NCBI GenBank assembly: GCA_963707985.1
Contig: CAVPRW010000010.1
Coordinates: forward strand, 240,303 to 304,302
DNA from: an uncultured Nitrospinota bacterium
GTDB taxonomy: Bacteria > Tectomicrobia > Entotheonellia > J063 > CAVPRW01
Length of the DNA stretch: 64,000 nt
Direction: 5' to 3'
A model generated the notes under the pieces. It was not told where the DNA came from. It did not search any database and saw nothing but the letters and a program-made list of their open reading frames with translations. This document shows positions 13,507-53,162 of this stretch, in pieces. A program made the position numbers and the translations under genes. Position 1 is the stretch's first letter, and each line of letters begins with the position of its first letter.

Positions 13507-14592
13507 CTATCGGCCTGCCCGAAATCGGTACCGCTCCTGCACATAACTTCCCAGTTCCTGACACCAGAGCGGCACATGGGACAGGGCCAACCCCAGTTGA
13601 AGGGGGAGTCTTGGAAATTCGTTCAAAGGTGCGCCCAGGGCCACTGTTGCGGCGATGGGCATATCCCAGCGTTCACGGGCTTCCCCAAGCATCTGCAGCG
13701 GATGACGCCAATGGCAGGCCATATAGTGTACGACTCTCCTGCGCTCACCGGCTCCGAGGCAGCGATCCCATTGCCGTAAGACGGCTGGGATGAGCCAGCG
13801 GGGTAAGTGGTTGGCGTGATCGGCAACCGGGGTGTTTTCGATATCGGCAGCCAGGAGCTGGTGCGCTAGCCCTAGTGTGCAGGCCACCCAACCGGCGTGG
13901 CGGCTATTCCCTCCCAGGCAACGGTCCCAATCGAAGTCCGGCGGCCGAGATTCCAGCGCCGCGGCGATATCACAGAGCCACAGCGGGCGCCAGGCATTGT
14001 GGCGCAGGAAATGGCGGATTAAGACGACCAGATGGTCCTCGGCGGCCAGGATACGGATATCGACGTCGTTGAGACGAGCGGTTTGTGAGCGTGCGTAGAG
14101 AACGTCGAGACTTTGGCCACACATCCACCTTAGGCCGCGATGCAGGTCCACGGGGCATTCGCCACCATTGCCCTCGTTGAGCACGGTCAGGGCCGCACCG
14201 TGTTGTTCGGGGCGCACGACGATATCAAGATCGCCAAACGGACGCAGGCCGGACTCCGGATAAAGCCGGGCCACGGCCCAGCCTTTGATCAAGAGCGGTT
14301 CCACCCCGGCGGCGCGCAGCGCGCCGAAAAGCTGTTGCAGCACCTGCTCACGTACGGTTGTGCGAATGGTGTGCAAACGATAGGCTTGCTGCAGGGTGCG
14401 GGCCGCGGCGGATGTCCGCAGACGGCTGTGTCGAACACGGTGCCAACCGAGCGCCCCTCCTCCCGATCGCAGCAGCAGCGGGGTAACCTGTTGTAACTCG
14501 CCCTCGGATGTAGCCAGGGGAGGAGGGTTATGACGCCAAATTCCCCTCAGCAGTGAGGCCAGGACACTACCGGGGGACGTTACTATACTCAT
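13507..14592 (-). CDS. Nucleotidyltransferase family protein (NTP_transf_5-like, the family that accompanies HPr-kinase homologues in lasso-peptide clusters)
   Basis: FGDLDIVVRP nucleotidyltransferase motif; 361 aa; overlaps upstream kinase gene by 26 nt. Confidence 0.6.
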   Translation of the reverse strand: MSIVTSPGSVLASLLRGIWRHNPPPLATSEGELQQVTPLLLRSGGGALGWHRVRHSRLRTSAAARTLQQAYRLHTIRTTVREQVLQQLFGALRAAGVEPLLIKGWAVARLYPESGLRPFGDLDIVVRPEQHGAALTVLNEGNGGECPVDLHRGLRWMCGQSLDVLYARSQTARLNDVDIRILAAEDHLVVLIRHFLRHNAWRPLWLCDIAAALESRPPDFDWDRCLGGNSRHAGWVACTLGLAHQLLAADIENTPVADHANHLPRWLIPAVLRQWDRCLGAGERRRVVHYMACHWRHPLQMLGEARERWDMPIAATVALGAPLNEFPRLPLQLGLALSHVPLWCQELGSYVQERYRFRAGR

Positions 14593-15418
14593 AGGACTTC
14601 TCCAGATATTTCAGGAGCCGTGGGGCGACTGCGCTGGCCTCGCCACGTCCACCCTTGAGGATGATGGCGTTGGCGGCGACCCGCTGCAGGATAACCAGAA
14701 CATCGGCGGGTTGGCGGCGCGCCGACACCGTATTCGCCAACAAGGCTAACACCCCGTGCCCAGGGGAGAGACGTCGCGGTCGCCAGCTGGCCCCAGCCTT
14801 GTAATGGCTAACCACTACAAGACCGATGGGCAGGGGCGTGGAGCCCGTACTGCCACTCAGCGTCTCTGCGGGGTGCCGAATCGCCCTCCCTCCGGGATCC
14901 GCACGCAGGGACAACGGCTTGAGATATGGATGTACTCGTCCCTGCTCATCCAACACGGCATATTCATCCGAATAATAGGTCGCACCGGCAGTTACCAAGG
15001 CTGCGACCAGTGTACTTTTGCCGCTGTGGCTCCGCCCTGGGATGAGGACGGCCTTCCCTCGCCAGCCGACCACACCGGCGTGTACGAACCGCCGACGGGG
15101 TGCGGCTTCAGCCACATGCAGATGGACATGCGCTTCAAGGGCGTCGAAAACCTCCTCAAGATCGAGTGATCGCGCCACACGCAGCGCATTCGCATACAGT
15201 AAGTGGAAACGACGCACTGCCGCCCTTGCTCCAGCTCCCCCTACGACCAACGAATAGAGGATATCCACCTGGGGGGAGGAGGCGGGTTTCCATGCCGGCG
15301 GCAGATAGATTCCAACTCGTTTCAGCACATCGGTCTCGCTCACTCGGATCCCGACGCGCACCCCATAGGCGGTAAAGGCCCGTCCAGCCGCCCAGCCCAG
15401 GCGGTCGATTTTCTCCAT
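14567..15418 (-). CDS. HPr kinase/phosphorylase-like P-loop kinase (HprK-related kinase)
   Basis: GRSHSGKSTL Walker A in the position and context of the HprK C-terminal domain (GxSGxGKS). Confidence 0.65.
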   Translation of the reverse strand: MEKIDRLGWAAGRAFTAYGVRVGIRVSETDVLKRVGIYLPPAWKPASSPQVDILYSLVVGGAGARAAVRRFHLLYANALRVARSLDLEEVFDALEAHVHLHVAEAAPRRRFVHAGVVGWRGKAVLIPGRSHSGKSTLVAALVTAGATYYSDEYAVLDEQGRVHPYLKPLSLRADPGGRAIRHPAETLSGSTGSTPLPIGLVVVSHYKAGASWRPRRLSPGHGVLALLANTVSARRQPADVLVILQRVAANAIILKGGRGEASAVAPRLLKYLEKSYEYSNVPR

Positions 15419-16254: not shown

Positions 16255-16834
16255 GGCGGGGGTCGCGCTCTGACCGGTATTCGGCGAGACAGAATATTTC
16301 AATCTTGTGTGGACTGATTGAGATGTTGTGCGACGTTGTGTCATAACTGAGTTCCCTCTCGACCCTGGATTGCCAGATATCAGACGACGGCACGTCTGCT
16401 GCTCAGGTGCGAGCCAATCCGGAGGGCGTTGCACTCATCCTCTCGAGGAGGTAACCCATCGGATTGGCGGCCTTCGGTGGGGAGAAGGCCAGCCTCCGCG
16501 ACGTTAGTGGGATTATAACATGCTCCCCAAGCCGGGTAACATGATAGTAACCGCTTAAGCCTAGGCTCGTTGACACCGGGCGACAGCACGCTAGAATATC
16601 ATGCTGACATGGCAACGGGATCGATTCAGGCAACGAATGGCACAGTCCCGGCGGATAGCCTCCATAGAATCCGAGGGTTTATGGCTTGAAGTACGGCCGG
16701 ATCACCTCACATGCCACGCGTTCCATCCTGGATGGCTACAAGTTATCACGCAAGTATTTCCCCGGTTAGATCTACATTGTGCCCCGTCGGGTCGGGTGCC
16801 TCATGTCCCGATGCTCGGGTGCAGAGGGGGTGAT

Positions 16835-17200
16835 GTGCGCTTTCGCGTCCATCTTCGTGCCCCACCGCCGATTGTGATTCCAATAAACTATGCGCATCAG
16901 CTCGCCTCCGTCGTCTACCACCTTCTCGGCCGCTCTTCTTCAGCATATAGGGCGTTTCTGCATAGTCAGGGCTATGGCACAGGCGATCGTCGCTTCAAAC
17001 TGTTCACCTTCTCCCCTCTCTTTGGTCAGCCACGCCAGGTGGTGGCCGGGCATTTACGCTTCGAGACTACCGCAGTGACATGGTCCATCACCTCCCCAGT
17101 GGAAGCCTTCATCCGACATGTGGTCCAGGGCATTCTGAGCCTCGATCAGATCGAGATAGCCGGCGTTACTTTCATAGAAAAGAGGAGACTTATGGCATGC
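16835..17200 (+). pseudogene. cas6: Cas6 endoribonuclease N-terminal fragment (C-terminal half incl. Gly-rich loop missing; reading frame runs into the HEPN gene)
   Basis: VRFRVHLR...PINYAHQLASVVYHLLG...AFLHSQGYG...FKLFTFSPLFGQPR...HLRF aligns to Pyrococcus-type Cas6 (RFLIRL..PYNHQYYLQGLIY...KLHD..KPFVFSLLFGNPR); GTG start with GAGGGGG SD. Confidence 0.55.
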
Positions 17201-17655
17201 CTGGCCGCTACGAAGATTGGTTACGGCAGGCGCGACGAGATATCAGCCACGCGCAAAACGCCTTGGAGGATGGCGATTACGATTGGGCCTGCTTTGCAGC
17301 CCAGCAAGCGGCCGAGAAAGCCGTTAAAGCCCTCTTCCGATTCCTCGCTGCAGACGCTTGGGGTCATTCCGTGAGCTTGTTACTCGGCAGGCTCCCCGAG
17401 ACATACAGACCTCTCGAAGCCATGATCGATGGCGCCAAGGAACTAGATAAGCATTACATCCCTTCGCGTTATCCCTATGGCTTTGACGAGGGTGCCCCAC
17501 TTGATTACTACACCAAAGATGAAGCCACACGGAGCATAGGCCATGCGCGAGTCATCATCACCTTCTGTGAAGGTCACATTTACCAACCGAGAACAAATCC
17601 TCACAGCCCTGAAGAATCTGATCCAGGAGTGGGCCCAACAACACCCGGAGCTTGA
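17197..17655 (+). CDS. HEPN-domain protein (HepT-like toxin of HEPN/MNT pair)
   Basis: DYDWACFAAQQAAEKAVKA...LDKHYIPSRYP typical HEPN; AGAGGAG SD 9 nt upstream of ATG. Confidence 0.7.
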   Translation: MPGRYEDWLRQARRDISHAQNALEDGDYDWACFAAQQAAEKAVKALFRFLAADAWGHSVSLLLGRLPETYRPLEAMIDGAKELDKHYIPSRYPYGFDEGAPLDYYTKDEATRSIGHARVIITFCEGHIYQPRTNPHSPEESDPGVGPTTPGA

Positions 17656-17920
17656 GCAGGTCATCCTGTTTGGCTCATTTGCGCGTGGCGATTATTTCCC
17701 CGGAAGTGATGTGGACGTGCTTCTCATCCTTGAGAACTCAGACCAACCGCTTCTATACCGTAGCCGAAAATTTCTTCCAACCCATTTTCCGGTTGACATC
17801 GATGTATTTCCTTACACTAGAGATGAAATCGAGCGCTTCATGAATGATCCTCAGAGCCTCGTGGTGCAGGCGCTGTCCGAGGGCAAACAGATGTACCCTT
17901 TAACTGGTTGCGAGTTTTAG
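17543..17920 (+). CDS. Minimal nucleotidyltransferase (MntA-like antitoxin)
   Basis: ILFGSFARGD....SDVDVLL = GS-x9-DxD Pol-beta superfamily motif; overlaps HEPN gene. Confidence 0.65.
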   Translation: MRESSSPSVKVTFTNREQILTALKNLIQEWAQQHPELEQVILFGSFARGDYFPGSDVDVLLILENSDQPLLYRSRKFLPTHFPVDIDVFPYTRDEIERFMNDPQSLVVQALSEGKQMYPLTGCEF

Positions 17921-18112
17921 ACACCGCAGAACGCTCGCAGGTAGATCAACACATACGCTAACAACTTCATCCCCGTATAGTCAAAATATTCGAACTCGCC
18001 TTCCCCCTGGAGGTTAGGCCTTTACCACCGTCTGTGCTTCAGCTTGTCTTCTGCTCCACTTTCACCCATACTCAGCATCAATTATGGATAGCAAAAGCTG
18101 AGAGGTGCGGCG

Positions 18113-19066
18113 ATGGACTGGAAACACCTGCTCGCATACATCACGGCGACTGTCGATCAGGAACTGCTGGTGTGCAACGAATATCTGGTCACGGAGAATC
18201 GCATCCTCCGCACCCAAATCAAGGGGCGCCTCCGGTTGAGTGACGGCGAACGTCAGACCTTGGCGGAGATTGGCCAGAAGCTAGGGAAGCAAGCCTTGGA
18301 GGAAGTGGCCACGATCGTCAAACCCGAGACCGTCCTTGGCTGGCACCGGAAACTGGTCGCCCGGAAGTTTGACGGTTCCCAACAGCGCAAGGCTCCCGGC
18401 CGTCCCACGATCGACCAGGAGGTGGAGGCCCTGGTGGCGCGTATGGCCAAGGAGAACCGCTCCTGGGGTTATGACCGGATCGTCGGCGCACTGGCCAACC
18501 TGGGCTATACGATCAGTGATCAAACCGTGGGCAATATCCTCAAGCGCCACGGTATCCCACCGGCACCAGAGCGTAAAACCACGACAACCTGGAAGGAGTT
18601 TATCCTCACGCACATGGATGTGCTCGTCGCCACTGACTTTTTCACCGCTGAGGTCTGGACAACGGCAGGGTTAGTGACATACTACGTGCTCTTTTTCATC
18701 CACCTCGCCAGTCGGCAAGTCCATCTGGCCGGCGTGACGCCCCATCCTGATGAGCGATGGATGGTGCAGAGCGGCCGTAACGTCACCATGACTGACTGGG
18801 GCTTCCTGTCTCCCGGGCAGTACCTCATCCATGACCGGGATGGGAAATATTGCCCCGTGTTTCAGCACATTATTGATGAGGCTGGCGTGAAGCGCGTTCC
18901 ATTACCGCCGCGGTCGCCGAATCTGAATGCCTACGCGGAGCGGTGGGTGCGCTCAGTGAAGGAGGAGTGTCTGTCGCGACTGATCCTGTTTGGGGAAGCG
19001 TCGCTCTGGTATGCGCTTCAAGAGTATGTGGAGCACTACCGTCACGAGCGGAATCATCAGGGTTAG
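18113..19066 (+). CDS. DDE (rve integrase-core) transposase of the IS3/IS481 superfamily, possibly 3'-truncated
   Basis: Leucine-zipper N-terminus, HTH ([19 protein letters not shown]), LIHDRDGKY and ...[10 protein letters not shown] ending abruptly within the conserved Y-x-ERPHQ motif. Confidence 0.7.
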
Positions 19067-19541
19067 GACAATGTGCTGCTCTTTCCTATCTCAAGAGGAG
19101 ACGGAAGGCGTACAGGCCCGGTTCACTGTCGAGAACGGCTCGGCGGACTCCTGAAATACTACGAGTGTGAGGCCGCATGAGTTTTTTGACCAAACGACCA
19201 GCAAAGTCTTCCAATCCATGCGTCTGTCCCCCTCCGTTTGCTCCGCCCTCCATGGGCGTCGAGTATACGTAATGGGGTGGACAGGAGGCGAGCCGAAGCG
19301 TGAGCCATGGCAGGGCCGTAAACGCTGCCGTCAAGCCGGTTTCGAGTTTTTTGACCATACGCGATTATTCCGATGAGACGAAGCGATTTGCGATCGCGCC
19401 GAGGTCACGATTCTTTGTCTCGAGCTCCCTCCGTCGCTCAGAATACTCTGACGTTAGGCGTTCTGACTCGTCGAACGTTCCGTCTTCGTTGTATCGGACA
19501 GCTGATAGGAATCGAGTATCTCCCTCGAATGCCTGCGCGGC

Positions 19542-20288
19542 CTACTCTGTGAGGGTTTGGAAGGTTCGCTCAGCCGTTTCCAGAGGTGCCTTGAGTTGGG
19601 TCCGTACCTCACGATGAACCGCCCCGAGGCCTTCGCTGTACTGCCTGAGGAGCGGCATAAGGGCAATGAGGCCATTCCCATTGGCACGCTGTTTGAGTTC
19701 CTCGAGTATTGGAGGTTTGAACTTCTTATCCTGAGCAAGTTCCCTTACACCAATGGCAGGGACGACGCTGAATCTCGAGCGGGCTGGCTGGAATCGCTCC
19801 TCATGGACGATAGGGAACGAAATAGCATTAACCGGAAGTCCTCGATGCTGAGCATGATTTCGCAACGCCTCCATTGCCCTGTACCCAAAGCGGTCATCGT
19901 ACTGCGCATTCATAACCTTTCTTATGCGCGCCACCACACGGCCACCATCTTGAAGGGCCTCTGAAATGTCGTGCTTTACTTGGTCCACGTATAGCCGCGC
20001 CGTCGCAAGGTAGTTGGTAAGTCTGCGATTCGTGCTACGCCGTGCGTGATTTAGGAGCTCGTCAATCCGACCAGGAAAGAGTGAGTACTCAAGCGCCATG
20101 TCGAGGAGATGACGTTCGAGATCCGCGTGATTCTCCAGTGCGATGTCGAACTTTTCCTCGACACCCAACCCAACGCTGAGCGTGACCCGCGCCCGTTGTG
20201 CGGCAGCGAACTCCTCCGCCGAGATTGGCACGTCTTTGTCGAAACCGATGTATGCGCAGGTAACGCCGTACCTTACTGCATCAGTCAT
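19542..20288 (-). CDS. Hypothetical protein with HEPN-like R-N-x3-H motif (ALRNHAQH)
   Basis: 249 aa, start MTDAV with GGAG SD; no known domain recognised beyond the motif. Confidence 0.4.
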   Translation of the reverse strand: MTDAVRYGVTCAYIGFDKDVPISAEEFAAAQRARVTLSVGLGVEEKFDIALENHADLERHLLDMALEYSLFPGRIDELLNHARRSTNRRLTNYLATARLYVDQVKHDISEALQDGGRVVARIRKVMNAQYDDRFGYRAMEALRNHAQHRGLPVNAISFPIVHEERFQPARSRFSVVPAIGVRELAQDKKFKPPILEELKQRANGNGLIALMPLLRQYSEGLGAVHREVRTQLKAPLETAERTFQTLTE

Positions 20289-20429
20289 GTGTCGCTCCTG
20301 AGCGCTCCCGTCGCCCAACTATTGAGTATCTGGCCATGTTTGCGTCAACGCCTCCTTGAACTAGTGCGAAGTCAAGCCGGCCCCACCCGTGCGTGATCAG
20401 TACAGCACATAATGGACCAAATGGCTGAG

Positions 20430-20910
20430 TCACTTCCGCGCCAGTGGCGCTCTGATGGGATCGCCGAACACGTCGATGATGAAGCGGTCCACGCCTTTGA
20501 AAAAGGCTTCCGCTAATCCTGCGATTGAGACGAACACCTGATCTGGAGCCGCTTGTGGGTTGTAGATGACTTCTGGGTCCGATTGATCGACATACCCGAT
20601 CTCCCGGCATTTGCCTTCGCGGCTCAGCCGTGACATGACGCTATAGTTGTGGAGCATGCCGCACCGTGCCCCATAGAGATCAAGCCCTGTGAGCTGTTCC
20701 TGACAGGGGAAATGCAGATATTGCTCAGCCCAGCGGATGAAGGCAGCACGGGTGACATCCTGCTGGCCCTCCGGCAGACTGAGGAAGGCCATGGCATCGA
20801 TCCACGCGTAAATCAGGATGACGGCAGAGCGATAACATTGCTGCTCAAGTAGCACCTCTATGCCCTGCTTGATCCCGACATGAATGACGTTTGAGATCGA
20901 TGCCTGCGGA
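20430..20910 (-). CDS. Hypothetical protein (160 aa)
   Basis: Start MSEVPQ with AGGAG SD; contains ARCGMLHN (R-x4-H); otherwise unassignable. Confidence 0.35.
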
Positions 20911-21087
20911 ACCTCGCTCATGAGCCATACACTCCTGGGAATGCTCCTCGCTCCACTGTGGTCGGCTGCACTCCACACCGAAGTCCGGTTGTGGTAACGC
21001 GGTTTGGAAGGGCTGTGCTGGACCACGTTCGCGCCCATTCGTGACGCCTGCCGCGAGACGGGGCGCTGACCCACCTCTGTGTAACGT

Positions 21088-21516
21088 TTATGGGGCCTCG
21101 CTGGCTGCCCGGCGAGGATTAGGGACCGCGTCGATGATCTGGTCAAACGTGCAGGCCCGCCCTTGAAACCCGTATATTTCGTTCACAAAGTGGTGGTAGG
21201 CAGGGTCCCTGGCCTCCAGACTCTTGAAGGCTTCGGCGACGGTGTGGAGCACGAGATAAGCGTCCTGCCGCCAAATCCGTAAGGGAAGCAGATTGAGCTT
21301 GAGGTGGGTGGACTGTCTGGTCTGAGGATCGAGCACCTGGTGAAATTTCAGATCGCCGTAGCCTGCCTGGAGAGCCGGTGGGGACACAAACTGCAGCGTC
21401 TCGAGCGTCTCCTGAACAATCTGGCCTTCCCAGAGATGGCTATGAGCAAGGACATCACGGATGACAAAGACCTCTCTGATCGCCTGGGTGAGTGGAGACT
21501 CCGGGGTCACCTCCAA
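21088..21516 (-). CDS. Hypothetical protein with HEPN-like R-D-x-x-A-H motif (IRDVLAHSH); TTG start
   Basis: 142 aa; motif resembles the Abi_2/HEPN R-[ND]-x-x-A-H signature. Confidence 0.35.
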   Translation of the reverse strand: MEVTPESPLTQAIREVFVIRDVLAHSHLWEGQIVQETLETLQFVSPPALQAGYGDLKFHQVLDPQTRQSTHLKLNLLPLRIWRQDAYLVLHTVAEAFKSLEARDPAYHHFVNEIYGFQGRACTFDQIIDAVPNPRRAASEAP

Positions 21517-21869
21517 GAAATACCCCAGCGCAGACTTCCGGCCCTGTCGCGTTCATGGTAACGGACCCAGGCAATCCCTGACTCGAACACCAGCGCGGCC
21601 AGGACGATGATCGCAGCCGAATACCCGTTCTCGTTCCGGCTGGTTTGTACGTCATTTGGAGCTTTGGCGGGCTCAGCCATCAAGGTTTCGACAACCCTCA
21701 CCAAGGGTTGGATCAAGGCAGGGCCAATCGGTGAAATATAGCCGAACGGCGTCTCGACCATACGATTCGTCTCCTCCTCCAGGCTTTGCTGATCAATCAC
21801 CGGCCACGGGCGGCGCAGGGGTAGGGGCACGGGAGCCCCGCTCGACGGCCTCATGGCAGGGTCGGACAC
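21507..21869 (-). CDS. Hypothetical protein with one hydrophobic (TM-like) segment; may be the frameshifted N-terminal part of the downstream gene
   Basis: 120 aa; NENGYSAAIIVLAALVFESGIAWV segment; 10-nt overlap with next ORF in a different frame. Confidence 0.3.
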   Translation of the reverse strand: MSDPAMRPSSGAPVPLPLRRPWPVIDQQSLEEETNRMVETPFGYISPIGPALIQPLVRVVETLMAEPAKAPNDVQTSRNENGYSAAIIVLAALVFESGIAWVRYHERDRAGSLRWGISWR

Positions 21870-22045
21870 CCCGCTCCTCCGCCTATAGGCGCACCTCCAC
21901 CCCAGCGCGCACCGGCATCTCGAAACACCAGCGGAGATGTCAGGGTCGCCAGCGCGTTCGGCGTTCTCGCCGGGCCGGTTCCTGATTGACGTAGATGCGA
22001 AGCTTTTCCGTGGGCGGCACGGATCAGTCGATCAGCTGAGTTGCC

Positions 22046-23261
22046 TCACTCGCACAAACACCACACGTGGAAGATATCAATAGGCGTCGCTTGGCCCTTG
22101 CGATCGGGCCACTGAAAGGTCCGCTCATGACGGCTCAGAAAAACAGCTTCGGCGGCCGGTGTTGAGCAGGCCCCTTTCATGGTTGTCCGTGCCGGTAGCT
22201 GCTGGGTCTGGAGAGTGGACATGCGCGGAGCTTCGGACATCGCAGGCAGCAAAGACTGTTCGATGGTGCGGCCGTTGCGGGCGTAAGCGAGCATCATGGC
22301 CTCCTGCATGGCCCACGCGTAGTCGCCGCGTACGAAGCGGATGAGGCCATCGTCACAGTATTTGCTGCCTGCAGGGTGCGCAGCGTCCACTGGCTTGGCT
22401 TCGATGAACAGGCCCTCGTGTTCGGAGAGCACCGAGCGTGGCTCGGTCTCGTCGTTTCGGAGTTTGAAAAAGAGGTCGGGGGCTTTGTTGAGGCTCTTGC
22501 CGTCGTAGTTGGCCCACTGGGCTTGACGGCTGACGAATTCGAAGTTGCGCTTGTCGAAACCCGGCACCTCGCCGCTCTGGCGGAGGTTGTTCTCAATCGT
22601 GCTGCGGAGTGCGGCGGTGACTCGGTCTTCGTGAGCGGCGGCGAGGTTGAATTGCTGTTCGCGCAGCAGCTCGAATGCGCGGAGCACCACGCGGCGGATG
22701 AGGAGCAGGACCGGAAGGCCAAGGCGCGGATGAGGGAGGTGATAACGCTCCGGCTGGAACGCCGAGCGTGAAGAAGCCCGCTGTGTCCGACGTGCTCATG
22801 CGTGCTCCGGCGAGACCACACTCGCCCAGTCGTTCGCGGATGATGTGTTGTGCGCAGAGCCGAGCACGCGTGACAGTCCACCACCGGCGCTGATTGAGCA
22901 GGCCGAGCAGCAGGCCGCGCTTGCGCGGCGCGTGCACAATGATGCGGCTGCAGCCGCGCTGGTTGGCCGCTTCCATCGCTTTTCGCATCAGGCTGGGATT
23001 GACCGACACCGAGTCCGCCTCGCGCGAGACGGCCAGGAAGAACCACGGTTCCCGCCATGTGTCGGGCTGAAACTCCGCCTCGCGCACCGCGACGTGTTCG
23101 CCGCAGACATCGAAATACGGTTCCAAGTGCTTCGCGCAGCGTTTGCACGAAATCGGCGCGTGTGTCGCGAGTCGTGCGGTCGAGCGCGGCCTTGCCGGCT
23201 TTGCGATACGAGGCGGCGGCGAAGAGCGTGTCCTCGGCGACCTGCACCGCATCCGCATCAA
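22046..23261 (-). pseudogene. PD-(D/E)xK nuclease-like gene, split across two frames (frameshift near 22.6-22.7 kb)
   Basis: ...KAPDLFFKLRNDETEPRSVLSEHEGLFIEAKP = PD...(D/E)xK core in frame ending 22690; protein-like N-terminal part in frame ending 23261. Confidence 0.4.
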
Positions 23262-25990
23262 GCCCGTAGAGTCGGAAGATGAACTCGTTTATTTCTCGCC
23301 ACGGCTTGCTCGCGTCGTGCTGAAGTCGCTGCGCAAGGCTGCGGATGGTGGTCTTGGTCTTGGTGGGAATCTTGGCAATGTGCGGGGAACGGCAGGGCGT
23401 CGAAGTCCTGCTTTGTGAACATCATGCGGTCGGCTCCCTGCGACACACTGACCATCAGGGCAAAGTATCGGAAGAGAGTGCTGTGCGCCAAAAGGAAGAT
23501 GAGCGAGGCAAGCGTCTGCTCTTCGGGATGCCCGGCGCACGAGTAGCCATAGTAGCTTTGCGAAAATGCCACAGCTTGAGTCGGATAGATAGGCCTTTGG
23601 GGAGCATGGGTCGTCGCCTGGGGCCTGTGGAATGATGACGAGCGGCGGTTGATAGAGTTCCTCGCGACGCGGCATGTGAGCGCTACTTTGGCCTCTGGCG
23701 TTCTTGCCGAATAACTCCCCGTATGTCGTCGTGGCCGCGGTGAATCCGAACAAGACGGCTCACGTCGGTGCCTCGAAAGACTGGTAGACTCGCCAAGGAA
23801 ATCTACGAACTTCTGAGCCAGATTGGGAGAGCGATTGTACCCTTGCCCAGTCTTGGCACCGTCCGCGTCCCACTCAGCCCAGCGGGCTCCAAGGGTCTTG
23901 TGGTCGATGTTCGACAGTGCCTCCATCACCTCCACATCCAGCCACGTCCCGAGCGATAGTGTCTTGAGCAGCCACGGCTGTTTCTCGACACGAGCGACGC
24001 TGATAGGATGTCGCGGCTTCGTAATCAATGCGGAAGCGTCCGTCGTCCGTTGAGTTCGGGTTCGTGAATGGGCGCAGCGTAGTGGAAGCGATGTTCTGGC
24101 GCGGGCTTTGCGTTGCGTGCAAAGAACACGCAGAAGGGCATCTTCACGTCCTTCCAGACCGACGACCACCGCAGATCCGCTCCGTTGATAAGTCCCGTCA
24201 CTTCGACGCTACGCAGCACGGCACGCCATGCCTCGAAGCCTTTACCAGAGGTGCGCCCGAAAAGCCGCGCGGGCATGGCAAGAGCGATGACGCCGCCGTC
24301 TTTCGCCCACTCCATCGCTCGCCAGAGGAATGGCAGGTCGGGATTCTTGTCGGGATTCTGGAAGCGCTTTGCCAAGTCATCCAAGCCGCGCGCAGTCAGC
24401 ACTCGGCGGCCAATCGCGGTGAACGCTTTGTTCAGTGCATCGGTGGCGGACTTGCTCGCCTTTGTATCCGCAGCATTGCCGTCTTTATCCTTGTCGTCGC
24501 GCAGTCGCGTCCACGGCGGATTGCCGATGACGATGTCGAACGTCTTGTCGAAGTCCGGCGAGACTTCTGGGCCGAGACTGCCCAGCGGGAATGCCTGCTT
24601 CCCTTGAGACTCTGCGCCACCAAAACGGTAGAGCACTTCGCCGCGGAGATTGCGCGGGAACTTGAGTGCCTGCGGCGGACGTGGGCTGGCATTGAGTTCG
24701 ATGGCAGTGATGTAGAGCGCGAGCGCCGCGAGTCGCAGAGCGGACTCGCTGATGTCGAAGCCACGCACCTGCTTGTAGAGAATGTTCTGTATGACCGCCG
24801 TCTTGGGTCGTTCGTCGTCTTGCAGCCAACGCTCGCGGACGAGGCGACGGAACGCGAGCACGAGGAAAATCCCCGCGCCGCACGAGCTATCGAGCACCTG
24901 TGCGCCAGCCTTGTCTTTCGTGGCGGCGAAGGCCTCCTCGACCATCAGTCCGGCGATGGTGCGCGGCGTGTAGTGGACACTGGTGTCCCGAGCCGTGCGC
25001 GGGTCGGCACGATGACTGAAGCTCTCATACACCTGACTGAGCACGCCAACTGGGATGTGCGCGAAATCGAGGTCGCCCCAATCGAGTTCGGTTTGGACAG
25101 TATCTCCAACGGCACTCCAGCCATGGAGAATCGCCTGGAGATGGGTGAAGATTTTCTTTCCCGACCAGATGCTCGGTGCGCTTGAAGAAACGAAGATACG
25201 CTGCCTCACGCGCATCGCGGCTATCGGCAGGAATGGATTCGTCGATGAGCGGGAGGAAGTCACCGTTGAAGGTCACGTCGAGCCACGCGGAGGTCTGCGC
25301 AGCTTTCTCCGCTGTGGAGAAGGCGTCTTTGAGTTCGTTCGCAGCCGAGCAGATGTCGTCGCGCTCGTGTTCCAGCACGATGCGCCGGTCTATGAGGAAG
25401 CGGAAGAATAGCGCGCGGCCCGCCATCGACAGGACTTCGAGCGCGTCCAACCGTCCCTTGCCGTCTTTGGGGACGAACTCGTTCGTCGTTTGTGTGAGTA
25501 GGTCGAAGATTTTGTGGAAGACGTAGTCCGTGCCGCGAAGCCGATGATTTTCCTCAAAGGTGCCATGCACAAGGCTCTGGAAGAACAACGGCGCCGTCGG
25601 GCTACGTTCATCGATCGTCTTCACAGGCCGCTGTATCGGCAGCCTCGTGGAACCCGATGGGGAAGATTTCCAACGAACCGGGCGCACGACACCCAGCCAC
25701 GCTGGGTCGCTGCGGTTTGCGAGCCGACGCCGCACAACGGCGAGCGAGGTTGCGTCGCTCTTCACATCGCCACTCGCGTCCACGAGATAGAGTAGCGCGG
25801 TCCCTTGATGCTCGGCGACTGCCGTGAGAGCGGGCGCGTGGTTGCTCTGCTTGGGCAACAGGTCGAGGTAATCGAGCTGCACAGGGGCAGAGAGCTTTTC
25901 GTCGAGCCGTATGACGCTCGTGCAGCCATAGGCAAGCAGCCGGTCAGCGAATGGACGATCCTCAACCATGTTGGGGTCTGTCATATTCAT
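23258..25990 (-). pseudogene. MmeI-like Type IIG restriction-modification enzyme (N-terminal nuclease-like domain + gamma-class N6-adenine MTase with NPPW) disrupted by at least three frameshifts and a stop
   Basis: Frames: 25990-25025 (LLYLVDASGDVK nuclease-like), 25263-24025 (SLDWGDLDFAHIPVGVLSQVYESF...HYTP...DSSCGAGIFL...IVIGNPPW), 24169-23258 and 23753-23289 carry further protein-like segments. Confidence 0.5.
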
Positions 25991-26332
25991 TTGCTGCCAG
26001 TCAAAGGTGCCTCATTCAGCCGAGTGGTTTCGGCAGTTTGATCGGCGACATACCTCTCCGCTGCGTCACGCACGACCCACGCCAATGAGACCTTTTTCTG
26101 TTTGGCGATCTCTTCCAGAATCCTATACAGCTCCGGCGGAAAGCTGACGGACGCACGTAGCGAGGCCGCGCTCGGTGTCTTGCTGTCGTTTTCCTGTTTT
26201 CTTCTCGCCTTCATGTGCAGTGCCCCCGGCTTTCAACTGTGCACCACCTTACACCATATTGGTGTACTTGCAAACTATATATTTTGGCGCACTCGTAGTG
26301 TCACGCGCTCCGTGGGCTCCGGCGTCCACTTT

Positions 26333-27162
26333 GGTTCTGTCGCAATTTTTATTTAAGGCGATTTGAGGTATGATCTCCCGCTGTCATCGAGGGTGCCATG
26401 AGAGGGGGAGAGGCAATGCCGGTGAGCTTCAAAGGGGCCCATTTCCCGCAGGATATCATTCTGATGGGTGTACGGTGGTATGTGGCGTACCCGTTGAGCG
26501 ATCGGCATGTGGAGGAACTCATGGAAGAGCGCGGGGTGCTGCTCGACCATGCAACCATCCAGCGCTGGGTCGTGAAGTACAGTGCTCAGTTGGAAGAGGC
26601 ATTCCACCGCCGCAAGCGCCCGGTCGGGCGCCGCTGGCGCATGGACGAGACCTACATTCGGGTCAAAGGCGAGTGGCGGTATTTGTATCGAGCGGTGGAT
26701 AAGTCCGGGCAAACCATTGACTTTCTCCTCACGGAGCACCGAGATACCGAGGCCGCGCTACGCTTTCTGATGCAAGCGATCCACCGTCACGGGGTCCCCG
26801 AGACAATCACCATTGATGGGAGCGGGGCGAATGAAGCGGCCATCAAGCGCTACAATGAGGAGCACGGCACCCACATCATCATCCGGCAGGTGAAATATTT
26901 GAATAATATCGTGGAACAGGACCATCGAGCGGTCAAACGGGTGACGCGTCCCATGCTGGGGTTCAAAGCGTTCGAGGCCGCACAGGCGACGTTGTCCGGG
27001 ATCGAGCTCATGCCCATGCTCAAGAAACGGCAGCTGATGGTTGAGGCAGGAGACGAGGGCCTCACGGCGGCCGAACAGTTCTACTCCCTCGCAGCATAAT
27101 CCCCACACGGACGGGGGCCACTGCCCCTGCACAGCCCCCTGAGCAAAATTTGCGACAGAGCC
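26333..27162 (+). mobile_element. IS6-family insertion sequence with 17-bp terminal inverted repeats GG(T/C)TCTGTCGCAA(A)TTTT; no flanking direct repeat
   Basis: ggttctgtcgcaatttt (26333-26349) vs reverse complement of aaaatttgcgacagagcc (27145-27162). Confidence 0.8.
26416..27099 (+). CDS. IS6 family (IS26-like) transposase
   Basis: MPVSFKGAHFPQDIIL..VRWY...MDETYIRVKGEWRYLYRAVD..G.TIDF closely parallels Tnp26. Confidence 0.85.
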   Translation: MPVSFKGAHFPQDIILMGVRWYVAYPLSDRHVEELMEERGVLLDHATIQRWVVKYSAQLEEAFHRRKRPVGRRWRMDETYIRVKGEWRYLYRAVDKSGQTIDFLLTEHRDTEAALRFLMQAIHRHGVPETITIDGSGANEAAIKRYNEEHGTHIIIRQVKYLNNIVEQDHRAVKRVTRPMLGFKAFEAAQATLSGIELMPMLKKRQLMVEAGDEGLTAAEQFYSLAA

Positions 27163-27247: not shown

Positions 27248-29227
27248 ATGAGTACGTACGATATCGGCGGCAAGCCTCCATATACCGCGTGGGAGAACCA
27301 GCAACACCGACCTGTGTCGTTTGACGTTTCCCTATTAACGCAGGACGACCTCTATCTCTTCAATGAGGGCACCCATTATCGGTTATACAACAAGCTCGGA
27401 GCCCATCCGCTCACCGCCAACGGTGCCGACGGCACCTATTTCGCCGTGTGGGCCCCAAACGCTACCCAGGTTTCTGTGATGGGGGAGTTCAATCGCTGGG
27501 ACAAAGCCAGCCATACCTTGCGTTCGCGAGGTGAATCGGGGATTTGGGAGGGTTTCATTCCAGGCGTTGGTCGGGGGACCATCTACAAGTATCACCTGAT
27601 CTCCCGGTACCAGGGGTATCAAGTCGACAAGAGCGACCCCGTGGCGTTTTACTACGAGGTGCCACCCAGAACCGCGTCCATAGTGTGGGACCTGAGTTAC
27701 ACGTGGGGGGATCAGCCGTGGATGGCCACGCGCCATGCCAGAAACGCACTCGCCGCTCCGATGGCCATCTATGAGATGCACCTGGGATCATGGATGCGCG
27801 TGCCCGAAGAGGGAAATCGCTCTTTGACCTACCGTGAGCTAGCGCCCAAACTGGCCGAACACGTCAAGCGCCTGGGCTTTACCCATGTCGAATTTCTGCC
27901 GGTGATGGAACATCCCTTCTATGGTTCCTGGGGCTATCAAACCACCGGCTACTATGCTCCTACCAGCCGCTATGGCACCCCTCAAGACTTGATGTATCTC
28001 ATAGATTATCTGCATCAGCATGAGATTGGGGTGATCCTGGATTGGGTTCCCTCACATTTTCCGACCGACGAGCACGGACTGGGATTTTTCGACGGCACGC
28101 ATCTCTACGAGCATGCCGATATGCGGCAAGGGCTACACCCCGATTGGAATAGCTTCATTTTCAACTACGGACGTAATGAGGTGCAAAGCTTTTTACTGAG
28201 CAGTGGGCTGTTCTGGCTCGAAAAGTATCATGTCGATGGCTTGCGGGTCGATGCCGTTGCCTCCATGCTGTATCTCGACTATTCGCGCCAAGCCGGGGAG
28301 TGGATCCCCAATCCACACGGCGGCCGTGAGAATCTTGGCGCCATCGCCTTTCTGCGTCGCTTCAACGAGTTTGTCTACAAGGATTTCCCCGCCGTGCAGA
28401 CATTTGCCGAGGAATCAACAGCCTGGCCAATGGTGTCAAGACCAACCTACGTTGGCGGCCTGGGATTCGGCGTTAAGTGGGATATGGGGTGGATGCATGA
28501 CACTCTCTCTTATATGACGAAGGACCCTATCTTTCGTCCCTATCATCACAATCTCCTCACCTTCCGCATGCTCTATGCGTTCACAGAGAACTTTATCCTG
28601 CCGTTGTCTCACGATGAAGTTGTGCACGGGAAAGGCTCCCTGCTGGGCAAGATGCCTGGCGATGACTGGCAAAAGTTCGCCAATCTGCGGCTGATGTATG
28701 GCTACATGTACACCCAACCGGGGAAAAAGTTGCTCTTTATGGGGAGCGAGTTCGGCCAGCGGCAGGAATGGAATCACGACGTCAGCCTCGATTGGCACCT
28801 CGGTCAGTACGCCCCACACGCAGGTCTGCAGCGCTGGGTGGAAGACTTGAATCGGCTCTATCGCAGCGAGCCTGCGCTCTACGAGCTCGATAACCACCCG
28901 TCCGGCTTCGAATGGATCGATTGCAATGATGCGCCCGCAAGCGTGGTCAGTTGCCTACGCAAGGGACACTTGACGGATGACCTGATACTCGTCGTCTGTA
29001 ATTTCACCCCCGTCCCCCGCCTCAATTATCGTGTCGGCGCGCCACGTGGCGGGTTCTGGCACGAGGTGCGCAATAGTGATGCGCACGACTACGGCGGCTC
29101 TGGCTATGGCAATATGGGGGGCGTTGAGGCCGCACCGGTCCCCTGCCATGGCCGACCCTATTCGTTGAATCTCACCCTTCCCCCTCTGTCGGTGGTGTTC
29201 TTCAAGCATGAGGAGTCCGGCGCATGA
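27248..29227 (+). CDS. glgB: 1,4-alpha-glucan branching enzyme (GH13), short form
   Basis: [21 protein letters not shown]..., GH13 catalytic blocks (GFDGFRVDAV equivalents), 659 aa. Confidence 0.9.
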
Positions 29228-51740: not shown

Positions 51741-53162
51741 ATGGTTGCTCAGGCATGGAGGCGATGGTCATCGGTGACATTTTTGACTCGTTGGCTGCCC
51801 AATACTCCCCTCCTCCACCTCGACGCCTGGCACATGGACGACACCGCCACCCAGCTCACGTTGCAGCTGACCTCGACCCAGGCCCTGGTGCATGGTCCGC
51901 TCTGCCGGTTTCCGACGCGGCGGGTCCAGCGTCGCGAGGGCCGCAGGGTGCTGGATCGGCCTTGGGGCCCATGGCGCGTTGTGCTCCACCTGCAGGTGCG
52001 AACGGTCTTCTGCGCCAATGGCCGCTGCCCCCGGCGCATCTTGACCGAGCGGCTGGCTCCGTTGATCGCGCCGGGGGCTCGACGCACGCCGCGGCTCGTG
52101 CAGGGGTTCGTGCACATCGCCGTGGCGCGGGCGGGCTCGGCCGGGGCCCGCCGAAGCCGTGGCTTGGGCCTCCCCGTCAGTCGCACCACCCTCCTGCGCC
52201 TGCGGCGTCGTGTGCCCCTCCCGGATGTGGCCACCCCCCGGGGGCTTGGTGTCGACGACTGGGCCATGCGGAAGGGTCGGACCTCGGGGACCATCATGAG
52301 TGATCTCGAGCGGCATCGAGCCCTCGCCCTTCTGCCCGATCGGGAGGCCCAGACGGTGGCCTGATGGTGGCCGGCGCCTCCTGGCGTCCGCGTGATCGCC
52401 CGGGATCGGTCCAGCGCCTCTGCGGATGGAGCCCGACACGGTGCTCCCGACGCGATCCGGGTCGCGGACCGCGTTCACCGCTGGCAGCACCTGGCCGAAG
52501 CCCTCGACCAGGTGTTTCACGCGCCTGGTCCATTCCTCGAGGCCGTCCATGAGACCCTCCGCCAGGCGCCGGTCACGCTGCCCGACGGCACGCGGGCGGT
52601 GCCGGTCCCCCCCCAGCGCCGCCAAGGAACGCCCAGGAGCTCGCGAACCAACGGCCGGCGCAGCGGCTGGCGCGCCGGCCGCAGATCGGGGCCGACCACC
52701 GTCAGGGGTGGCCGGGGTGGGCCATGGCCCCGCCGCTGGGGGTTGGCAAGCATACCGTGGTGCGTGATCTCCGGACGGAGACCTGCCCCGCGCGTCAGCG
52801 TCGGACGGACCGCGGCCGCCCTCTCCTCACGCCCTCCACCTTCTCGCTCCTCGACCGCTGGAACGCCGGTTGTCGTGACGCCTGGCGACGGTTTCGCGAG
52901 TGCCAACAGCGGGGTGATCCCGGAGCTCGGCCACGGTCGCCCGCGAGGCGCCGCGTCTGCGCCACGCCCAAGGGTGGACATCCCGGCAACGGCGACCACG
53001 CCATCCCCTGCCGGTCGTGACCACACGCCGCCCCGCGCCTTGACCCCGCGCCGGGCCACCTGGCTGGTCCGGCGGCGGCCGGAGACGCAGGACGCACACG
53101 ACGCGGCGCAGATCGCCCAGCTGCAAGCCCAGCATCCCGAGCTGGCCGCCGCCATTATCTGA
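51741..53162 (+). pseudogene. ISL3-family transposase remnant (frameshift at about 52.37 kb, degenerate zinc finger, truncated C-terminus); GC about 75%
   Basis: GVDDWAMRKGRTSGTIMSDLERHRALALLPDRE (frame 1) then VIARDRSSASADGARHGAPDAIRVADRVHRWQHLAEALDQVF (frame 2) and LVRRRPETQDAHDAAQIAQLQAQHPELA. Confidence 0.7.

Follow-up and report, generated by a model that had tools for sequence, protein, structure and literature searches.

Three independent, probably HEPN-type genes lie inactivated next to one another in a decaying defence island of an uncultured Nitrospinota bacterium

The closest described counterparts of the genes reported here are the solo HEPN proteins of the abortive-infection (Abi) kind. 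As described by Anantharaman et al. (2013, PMC3710099), a HEPN domain is a four-helix up-down bundle whose R-x4-6-H motif closes helix 3 or opens the loop from helix 3 to helix 4; helix 2 carries a conserved acidic residue, and inserts between helices 2 and 3 are frequent (PMC3710099). In the HEPN domain of Csx1 a beta-hairpin comes right after the motif (PMC3710099), and solo HEPN genes have also been described as embedded beside restriction-modification (R-M) operons (Table 1, PMC3710099). Here we analyzed four consecutive open reading frames (ORF1-ORF4) in a 64,000-nucleotide stretch of contig CAVPRW010000010.1 (the window) from an uncultured Nitrospinota bacterium, which a sequence-only reading had proposed as an undescribed four-gene abortive-infection/defence module. 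We conclude, with a probability of roughly 0.6, that the locus holds three independent stand-alone HEPN-like RNase/Abi-type genes, now dead, and not one system. Each gene represents a different uncatalogued helical family in which the R-x4-H pair is the sole universally conserved feature, apparently placed as in HEPN domains.

The reading frames, their motifs and the genes that we reconstructed from them are listed below.

21507-21869, minus strand: ORF1, 120 aa
21088-21516, minus strand: ORF2, 142 aa
20430-21146, minus strand: ORF3 as read, 238 aa from a TTG, 163 aa from the ATG at 20921
19542-20318, minus strand: ORF4 as read, 258 aa from a TTG, 248 aa from the ATG at 20288
21442-21459, minus strand: R-D-V-L-A-H motif, ORF2 residues 20-25, family pattern xRDxIxHNHLWE
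20649-20666, minus strand: R-C-G-M-L-H motif, ORF3 residues 86-91, family pattern LYGARCxMLH
19845-19862, minus strand: R-N-H-A-Q-H motif, ORF4 residues 143-148, family pattern YRxMEALRNHxQH
21088-21869, minus strand: ORF1+2, a single gene of an uncatalogued HEPN-like family of about 220 aa, broken in two by a 1-bp deletion (21545/21544)
20397-20921, minus strand: ORF3 with its ancestral end, a solo HEPN-like family of about 175-185 aa, premature TGA at 20430-20432
19365-20288, minus strand: ORF4 with its ancestral end, a solo HEPN-like family of about 305-315 aa, premature TAG at 19542-19544
19364-20343, minus strand: gene-sized ORF4 unit, whose presence and flanks differ among close relatives

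All four co-oriented frames are present at the sizes first given for them, and the real ORF3 gene is the 163-aa version starting at 20921. The suspicion that ORF1 is the frameshifted front of ORF2 proved right. Protein P0027 (247 aa, 95% identity) covers 97% of the ORF1+ORF2 fusion, and in the DNA alignment the related locus L121 reads GCGACACGGGCC where the window has GCGACA-GGGCC, a single C being missing between 21545 and 21544. Intact copies of 224-247 aa are found in L011, L121 and L126, three close relatives with 90-95% DNA identity, of which L126 is a sister genome (93% over window 17178-26014). The ancestral start of ORF1+2 is likely the ATG at 21761 (MVETPFGY...), and the frameshift in the window separates helix 2 of the protein from its presumed catalytic helix.

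The first reading had missed further truncation, since ORF3 and ORF4 are each cut by an in-frame stop. ORF3 carries TGA at 20430-20432 where L121 has CGA, and its last 11 codons are lost; beyond the TGA the frame reads LSHLVHYVLY up to the ancestral stop at 20397-20399, and homologues extend 11-20 residues further, ending in ...RLxxLVHxxPY. Deprived of this conserved C-terminal tail, ORF3 may still be the least damaged of the three. ORF4 carries TAG at 19542-19544 vs CAG in relatives, with Q at this position in P0002/L124 and in P0302, an intact 307-aa copy of at least 90% identity. The 58 codons lost up to the ancestral TAA (19365-19367) encode the last strands and the last helix, including an invariant R286, and the read-through translation is 98-100% covered by homologues of 301-318 aa. 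Since the same pieces, 120, 140, 163 and 248 aa long, recur in an independent Logan assembly, the lesions cannot be put down to errors peculiar to this assembly. With one frameshift and two nonsense codons the window copies are pseudogenes, and cloning this cluster for phage challenge, as had been suggested, would therefore test nothing.

The three R-x4-H motifs that had drawn attention to the locus are all present, RDVLAH in ORF2, RCGMLH in ORF3 and RNHAQH in ORF4. Their mere presence is not above chance: the background rate is 0.39 per 100 aa over all window ORFs of at least 100 aa, and about 2.6 are expected in the approximately 675 aa of these ORFs vs 4 seen. Their family-wide conservation is. 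This had been named beforehand as a test, and R and H turned out to be invariant in all three family alignments, namely A5 for ORF1+2 (76 sequences, residue numbers following P0027), A3 for ORF3 (49 sequences) and A2 for ORF4 (25 sequences).

The ORF1+2 family comprises 508 representatives at E<=1e-3 (50% clustering), 136 of them below 1e-30. R125 and H130 are the only invariant columns of A5, and E67, N68, G69, E83, S84, E120, D126, H132 and W134 are at least 90% conserved. The segment YSAAIIVLAALVFESGIAWV, at first described as transmembrane-like, corresponds to the conserved ENGYSxxIIxLxVxxLES helix of the family; its polar E, N, E and S are near-invariant, and burial in the protein core is more likely for it than a membrane-spanning role. 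Two family members are extended at the N-terminus: P0211 (420 aa) has a GIY_YIG_2 nuclease domain (4.9e-18) fused ahead of the ORF1+2-type domain, and P0253 (374 aa) has a weak GNAT-like region. A GIY-YIG ORF also lies downstream of the ORF1+2-family gene in L123.

For ORF3 we counted at least 225 clusters. The family is scattered, occurring in 29 of 185,579 GTDB species representatives from Nitrospirota, Desulfobacterota, Planctomycetota, Acidobacteriota, Chloroflexota and Omnitrophota and in one Xenophilus, with a typical length of about 180 aa and 50-60% identity across phyla. Y83, A85, R86, C87 and H91 are invariant in A3. Four cysteines, C29, C73, C87 and C105, are invariant or nearly so, and C87 directly follows R86.

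The ORF4 family amounts to 26 clusters by word search and 236 metagenome loci, with a typical length of about 308 aa. Invariant in A2 are N53, E58, N92, Y100, D102, Q103, Y136, R137, E140, R143, N144, Q147 and H148, and a homologue in Marinobacter phage PS3 (27% identity, E 5e-20) keeps all of them. This gene, the only phage match for ORF4 by tblastn, is placed as follows.

L130:3965-4858, equal to MF959999.1 23429-24322: phage PS3 ORF4 homologue, in the head module between the portal and capsid/scaffold genes

Its position resembles that of an accessory gene inserted between two head genes. Neighbours of ORF4 relatives include MmeI, Type ISP, OLD-TOPRIM/AAA_15, HNH, DNA methylases, resolvase, IS200, RhuM and DEAD helicases. 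Two metagenome loci, L052 and L054, carry tandem ORF4-family pairs of 308+327 aa and 308+311 aa.

None of the three families is catalogued. Pfam, PADLOC and NCBIfam gave nothing beyond noise at E<=1, in line with the first reading that no family identity is recognizable, and no family has a Pfam, NCBIfam or PADLOC match. PADLOC-DB v2 did not match ORF1-ORF4 in the window, nor the intact homologues P0027, P0031, P0302, P0004, P0074, P0151 and P0018. Abi_2 (PF07751) matched neither ORF4 nor 24 homologues at E<=0.1, and PF05168/PF01934 gave nothing above noise (one member at E 0.059). PHROGs returned weak matches of unknown function on the window ORFs, phrog_12390 for ORF3 and phrog_30874 for ORF4.

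The AlphaFold2 model of ORF3 (predicted local distance difference test score, pLDDT, 92) has helices at 9-26, 30-47, 58-68 and 79-92, a beta-hairpin and a helix at 133-153, and places R86...H91 at the C-terminal end of helix 79-92. That of ORF4 (pLDDT 89.7) has long helices at 24-70, 72-111, 115-132 and 134-147, a beta insert and a helix at 210-247, with R143...H148 at the end of helix 134-147. A conserved acid lies in the preceding long helix of each family (D42 in ORF3, D102 in ORF4 and E83 in ORF1+2). As modelled, ORF3 and ORF4 are compatible with the HEPN description, D42 and D102 taking the part of the helix-2 acids. The R-x4-6-H pattern of HEPN domains is found throughout A2, A3 and A5 and in the phage PS3 homologue, and hhalign places A5 and A3 co-linearly, helix 2 and the R..H motif of one falling on those of the other, in an alignment that is not significant. 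A Foldseek search of the PDB with the ORF4 model gave no significant match; long bundles of the ClyA/NheA type appeared at low TM-scores and were rejected as noise. Going by the models, HEPN membership is likely for ORF3 and plausible for ORF4, and for ORF1+2 we infer it by analogy only. Formal membership is not fully proven: the motif is there and the topology is compatible, and a profile match was not obtained.

Several observations weigh against assigning these genes to the HEPN superfamily or to defence. Pfam scans of the 25, 49 and 76 family members produced noise, every HEPN model staying at E 0.05 or above; PDB sequences searched with the family profiles gave no match; and hhalign comparisons between the three families are not significant (E 0.25-0.6). 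Scans of IMG/VR viral contigs detected no member of any of the three families. There is no evident antitoxin partner that would hold self-toxicity in check. The four conserved cysteines of ORF3 are not a HEPN feature; as far as their pattern goes, they hint at a metal or redox site, which is not typical of HEPN domains. The 25 neighbour families listed (of 142) around ORF3 relatives are mainly housekeeping enzymes, not defence genes.

The missing profile link to HEPN families, together with the cysteines and neighbours of ORF3, would suit the explanation that at least one family is not a HEPN RNase at all and uses R and H for ligand or metal binding or for regulation, ORF3 being the prime suspect. 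We regard this as unlikely, though the most serious of the alternatives, because R-x4-H is the most conserved feature in all three families and appears to close the third core helix, a conserved acid lying in the long helix before it, as in the HEPN arrangement, and because the sporadic spread of ORF3 among species representatives fits accessory conflict genes.

That the three genes form no single system follows from their surroundings. Among all fetched loci, joint matches to the hidden Markov model profiles of the three families occurred in L011, L121 and L126 alone. Clustering of neighbours (BLASTP 1e-5) revealed no recurrent partner around ORF3 homologues in 29 genomes and none around ORF4 homologues in about 80 metagenome loci, near-duplicate loci excepted, and tblastn detected no ORF1/2/3 relative near the ORF4 homologues in L001-L004. 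An operon of several cooperating HEPN effectors, as first proposed, would agree with the co-orientation and close spacing of the genes and with an order that is kept in close relatives: p250 (the gene of a 250-aa protein, described below), ORF1+2 and ORF3 in L121 and L126, and p250 and ORF1+2 at the contig end of L011. This order is, however, common to this lineage only, where descent predicts it. L121 has no ORF4 after ORF3 in its remaining 535 bp, and the ORF1+2 homologue P0151 lies in an unrelated context. The sequence-only reading had itself offered conservation of gene neighbourhood as a check; there is no conserved synteny, the three families (three genes, not four) do not co-occur elsewhere, and by that reading's own standard the module is refuted. 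We consider it very improbable. The observation behind it is confirmed and the interpretation partly supported.

The ORF4 unit also behaves separately from its neighbours. The match to L121 (95% identity) breaks off near 20343, a short way upstream of the ORF4 start; L124/L125 (92% identity) match window 19364-20133 only, with unrelated flanks and the first ~155 bp of ORF4 gone. Window 19364-20343 and L126:10560-11620 differ by just 4 substitutions and a single 2-bp indel over about 1 kb; that this unit is closer to L126 than the island overall (93%) suggests uneven divergence or recent exchange. An integron cassette was considered for this gene-sized unit, and no systematic search for attC-like elements was made. 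An 18-nt direct repeat, GAGTTTTTTGACCA[A/T]ACG, lies at 19179-19196 and 19344-19361 on the plus strand, 165 bp apart, between the transposase gene and the 3' end of the ORF4 unit, its second copy abutting the limit of the L124 match. The two copies occur nowhere else in the window (0 expected) and may be insertion sequence (IS) ends or insertion scars.

Toxin-antitoxin (TA) pairs offer another way to account for solitary toxins, if the antitoxins go undetected because they are RNAs or evolve too rapidly. Small co-oriented ORFs of unrelated sequence do lie next to the family gene in many ORF4 and ORF3 loci, and HTH_3/HTH_31 neighbours occur in 2 ORF3 loci. On the other side, no neighbour recurs at BLASTP 1e-5 and there is no MNT partner, NTP_transf_2 not being among the recurrent neighbour families of ORF3 and ORF4 loci. 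A type III-like RNA antitoxin is opposed by the lack of tandem repeats in window 18900-22300 and by the upstream regions of 26 ORF3 homologues, where flanking DNA is not conserved and repeats form no arrays, amounting to trivial two-copy ones of 9-12 nt in 3 loci. The Rfam scan of the window region gave no credible match, and a scan for promoter- or terminator-like sites in the region found none. Such pairs are in our view improbable. Searches of mobile elements by tblastn added little: there was nothing for ORF1+2 and ORF3 in plasmids, where ORF4 had three marginal partial matches, and no phage match for ORF3.

The adjoining R-M locus has to be considered for ORF1+2.

22046-22798, minus strand: p250 homologue, a 250-aa protein that follows the type IIG enzyme in relatives
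22809-25990, minus strand: decayed type IIG R-M (MmeI/Eco57I-like) in at least three frames, PADLOC REase_MTase_IIG

The p250 protein of L011 (L011:3402-4154) matched window 22049-22750 in tblastn (residues 17-250, 92% identity). It has no match in Pfam or PADLOC, and in L011 and L126 the start of its gene overlaps the stop of the type IIG enzyme by 4 nt; p250 may be an unrecognized partner of this R-M type. ORF1+2 could accordingly be an accessory of a type IIG R-M and p250 operon, like Abi2, AbiU2 or AbiJ, with ORF3 and ORF4 as unrelated passengers. The order IIG enzyme, p250, ORF1+2 in L011 and L126 argues for this, as does the description of HEPN genes within R-M operons (PMC3710099 Table 1). 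Against it, p250 and ORF1+2 are separated by a 258-bp gap in L011, and around P0151 (L122/L123) the neighbours are unrelated, without an R-M gene or a p250 relative. L122/L123 is the sole context obtained for the ORF1+2 family outside the close relatives, so that contexts are too few to decide; on balance the accessory role seems unlikely. A 267-aa gene upstream of P0151 was tried as a p250 relative and proved unrelated on comparison.

The defence-island context noted at the outset, with a Cas6 remnant, a HEPN/MNT pair, a transposase and a broken type IIG R-M, was confirmed throughout. The remaining features of the island and its edge are these.

16601-17374, plus strand: Cas6 ORF, match to the Cas6_I-A N-terminal domain only (7e-12)
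17080-17655: HEPN gene (Pfam 1e-34), paired with NTP_transf_2
17543-17920: NTP_transf_2, the MNT partner (Pfam)
18113-19066, plus strand: IS3/IS481-type transposase (HTH_32 and rve_3, Pfam), downstream of ORF4
25987-26214: RHH gene, in the window where L126 has Mokosh
26398-27099: transposase ORF, in the window where L126 has Mokosh; presumably IS6-like, a name taken from reading the sequence
27248-29227: glgB, in the window where L126 has Mokosh

The island is in decay, three HEPN-like genes (1-bp deletion, TGA and TAG) and the R-M enzyme being inactivated. The 1057-aa type IIG enzyme of L011 (N6_Mtase/MmeI_Mtase/Eco57I) corresponds to six pieces in frames -1, -2 and -3 of the window and is intact in L011 and L126. 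In L126 the R-M, ORF1+2 and ORF3 genes are intact and ORF4, p250 and the transposase are broken: the transposase gene is split into 147- and 135-aa pieces and p250, N-terminally disturbed in the window, into 55 + 173 aa. The decay is progressive, as L126 adds a frameshift to the shared TAG of ORF4, by a 2-bp insertion at 20120/20121, and in L124/L125 the 5' 185 bp are gone. The sister-genome Cas6 (L126:13798-14592) has 264 aa and both domains. A full-length Mokosh type II gene (PADLOC MkoC, E=0, 1352 bits) lies beside the intact type IIG R-M at L126:850-4386 on the minus strand, a position corresponding to the window just beyond 26014, where the window has no such gene. Upstream of the island, at 13507-15418 on the minus strand, is an overlapping pair of genes, one for an NTP_transf_5 'uncharacterised nucleotidyltransferase' (361 aa, 6e-26), the other for a P-loop protein of 283 aa. 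Further away, G+C content rises to 0.74 at 52001-53000, vs ~0.58 for the window.

Under the preferred explanation of three independent genes, each intact protein would be a stand-alone, metal-independent HEPN-type endoribonuclease of the toxin/abortive-infection kind. Two protomers would pair their R-x4-H motifs into one composite active site, which would stay silent until a trigger such as phage infection and would then cut RNA. The adjacency of the three genes would stem from the build-up of defence and toxin genes in one island, here shared with the type IIG R-M, the HEPN/MNT pair and Cas6, and in the sister genome with Mokosh. We infer the RNase activity and the defence role of the intact proteins; the associations found are of the conflict type, namely R-M adjacency, the phage PS3 copy and the GIY-YIG fusion of P0211. 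It is conceivable, if rather unlikely, that one undescribed HEPN clade holds all three families as distant members, a clade of antitoxin-less single-gene abortive-infection RNases. They would then share, with the same low probability, a layout in which helices 1-2 and an insert helix precede a motif helix that ends in R-x4-H, followed by a beta-hairpin and a long C-terminal helix, and, no less tentatively, a metal or redox site of four cysteines beside the catalytic Arg would gate the ORF3 branch. Were this true, the uncatalogued single-gene candidates for defence would grow by several hundred, mostly in Nitrospirota, Desulfobacterota, Planctomycetota and Acidobacteriota.

If intact members of the three separate families are R/H-dependent RNases that block phages, three more single-gene HEPN defence or toxin families are missing from Pfam, NCBIfam and PADLOC, all of them common in environmental bacteria that experimental defence screens cover poorly. 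Further divergent solo HEPN families and decaying islands would be no surprise to the specialist; the useful outcome is three defined families with intact representatives. The locus also documents the stepwise decay of a whole defence island, with differing lesions in sister genomes, a pattern expected from the turnover of costly defence genes, and it cautions against taking several motif-bearing ORFs for an operon because they adjoin one another in a defence island.

Compared with known systems, the three families most resemble the solo Abi-type HEPN proteins (Abi2/AbiD/AbiF, AbiU2, AbiV and AbiJ; PMC3710099), which are likewise encoded by single genes without antitoxins, are helical with a conserved R-x4-6-H and often lie beside R-M operons in defence islands. 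They differ in lacking any match to Abi_2, HEPN_AbiU2, HEPN_AbiV or other HEPN models of Pfam among 150 members scanned, and any PADLOC match, in having motif contexts of their own (RDxIxHNHLWE, LYGARCxMLH and YRxMEALRNHxQH), and in the beta-hairpin or sheet insert after the motif in the ORF3 and ORF4 models. Abi2-type proteins have about 300 aa, and ORF4 is of similar size with its motif likewise near the middle. With HepT/MntA (type II/VII TA) the families would share a HEPN-like bundle with R-x4-H, and a genuine pair of this kind lies 1.5 kb away at 17080-17920; unlike it, they have no nucleotidyltransferase partner and are 175-310 aa long, vs ~130-150 aa for the matched HepT/HEPN chains. 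The strands after the motif in the ORF3 and ORF4 models recall the Csx1/Csm6 HEPN domains, from which the families are set apart by the lack of a CARF domain, of CRISPR association outside this island and of sequence similarity. The three genes are best filed as uncatalogued stand-alone HEPN-superfamily toxin/Abi-like genes in defence islands.

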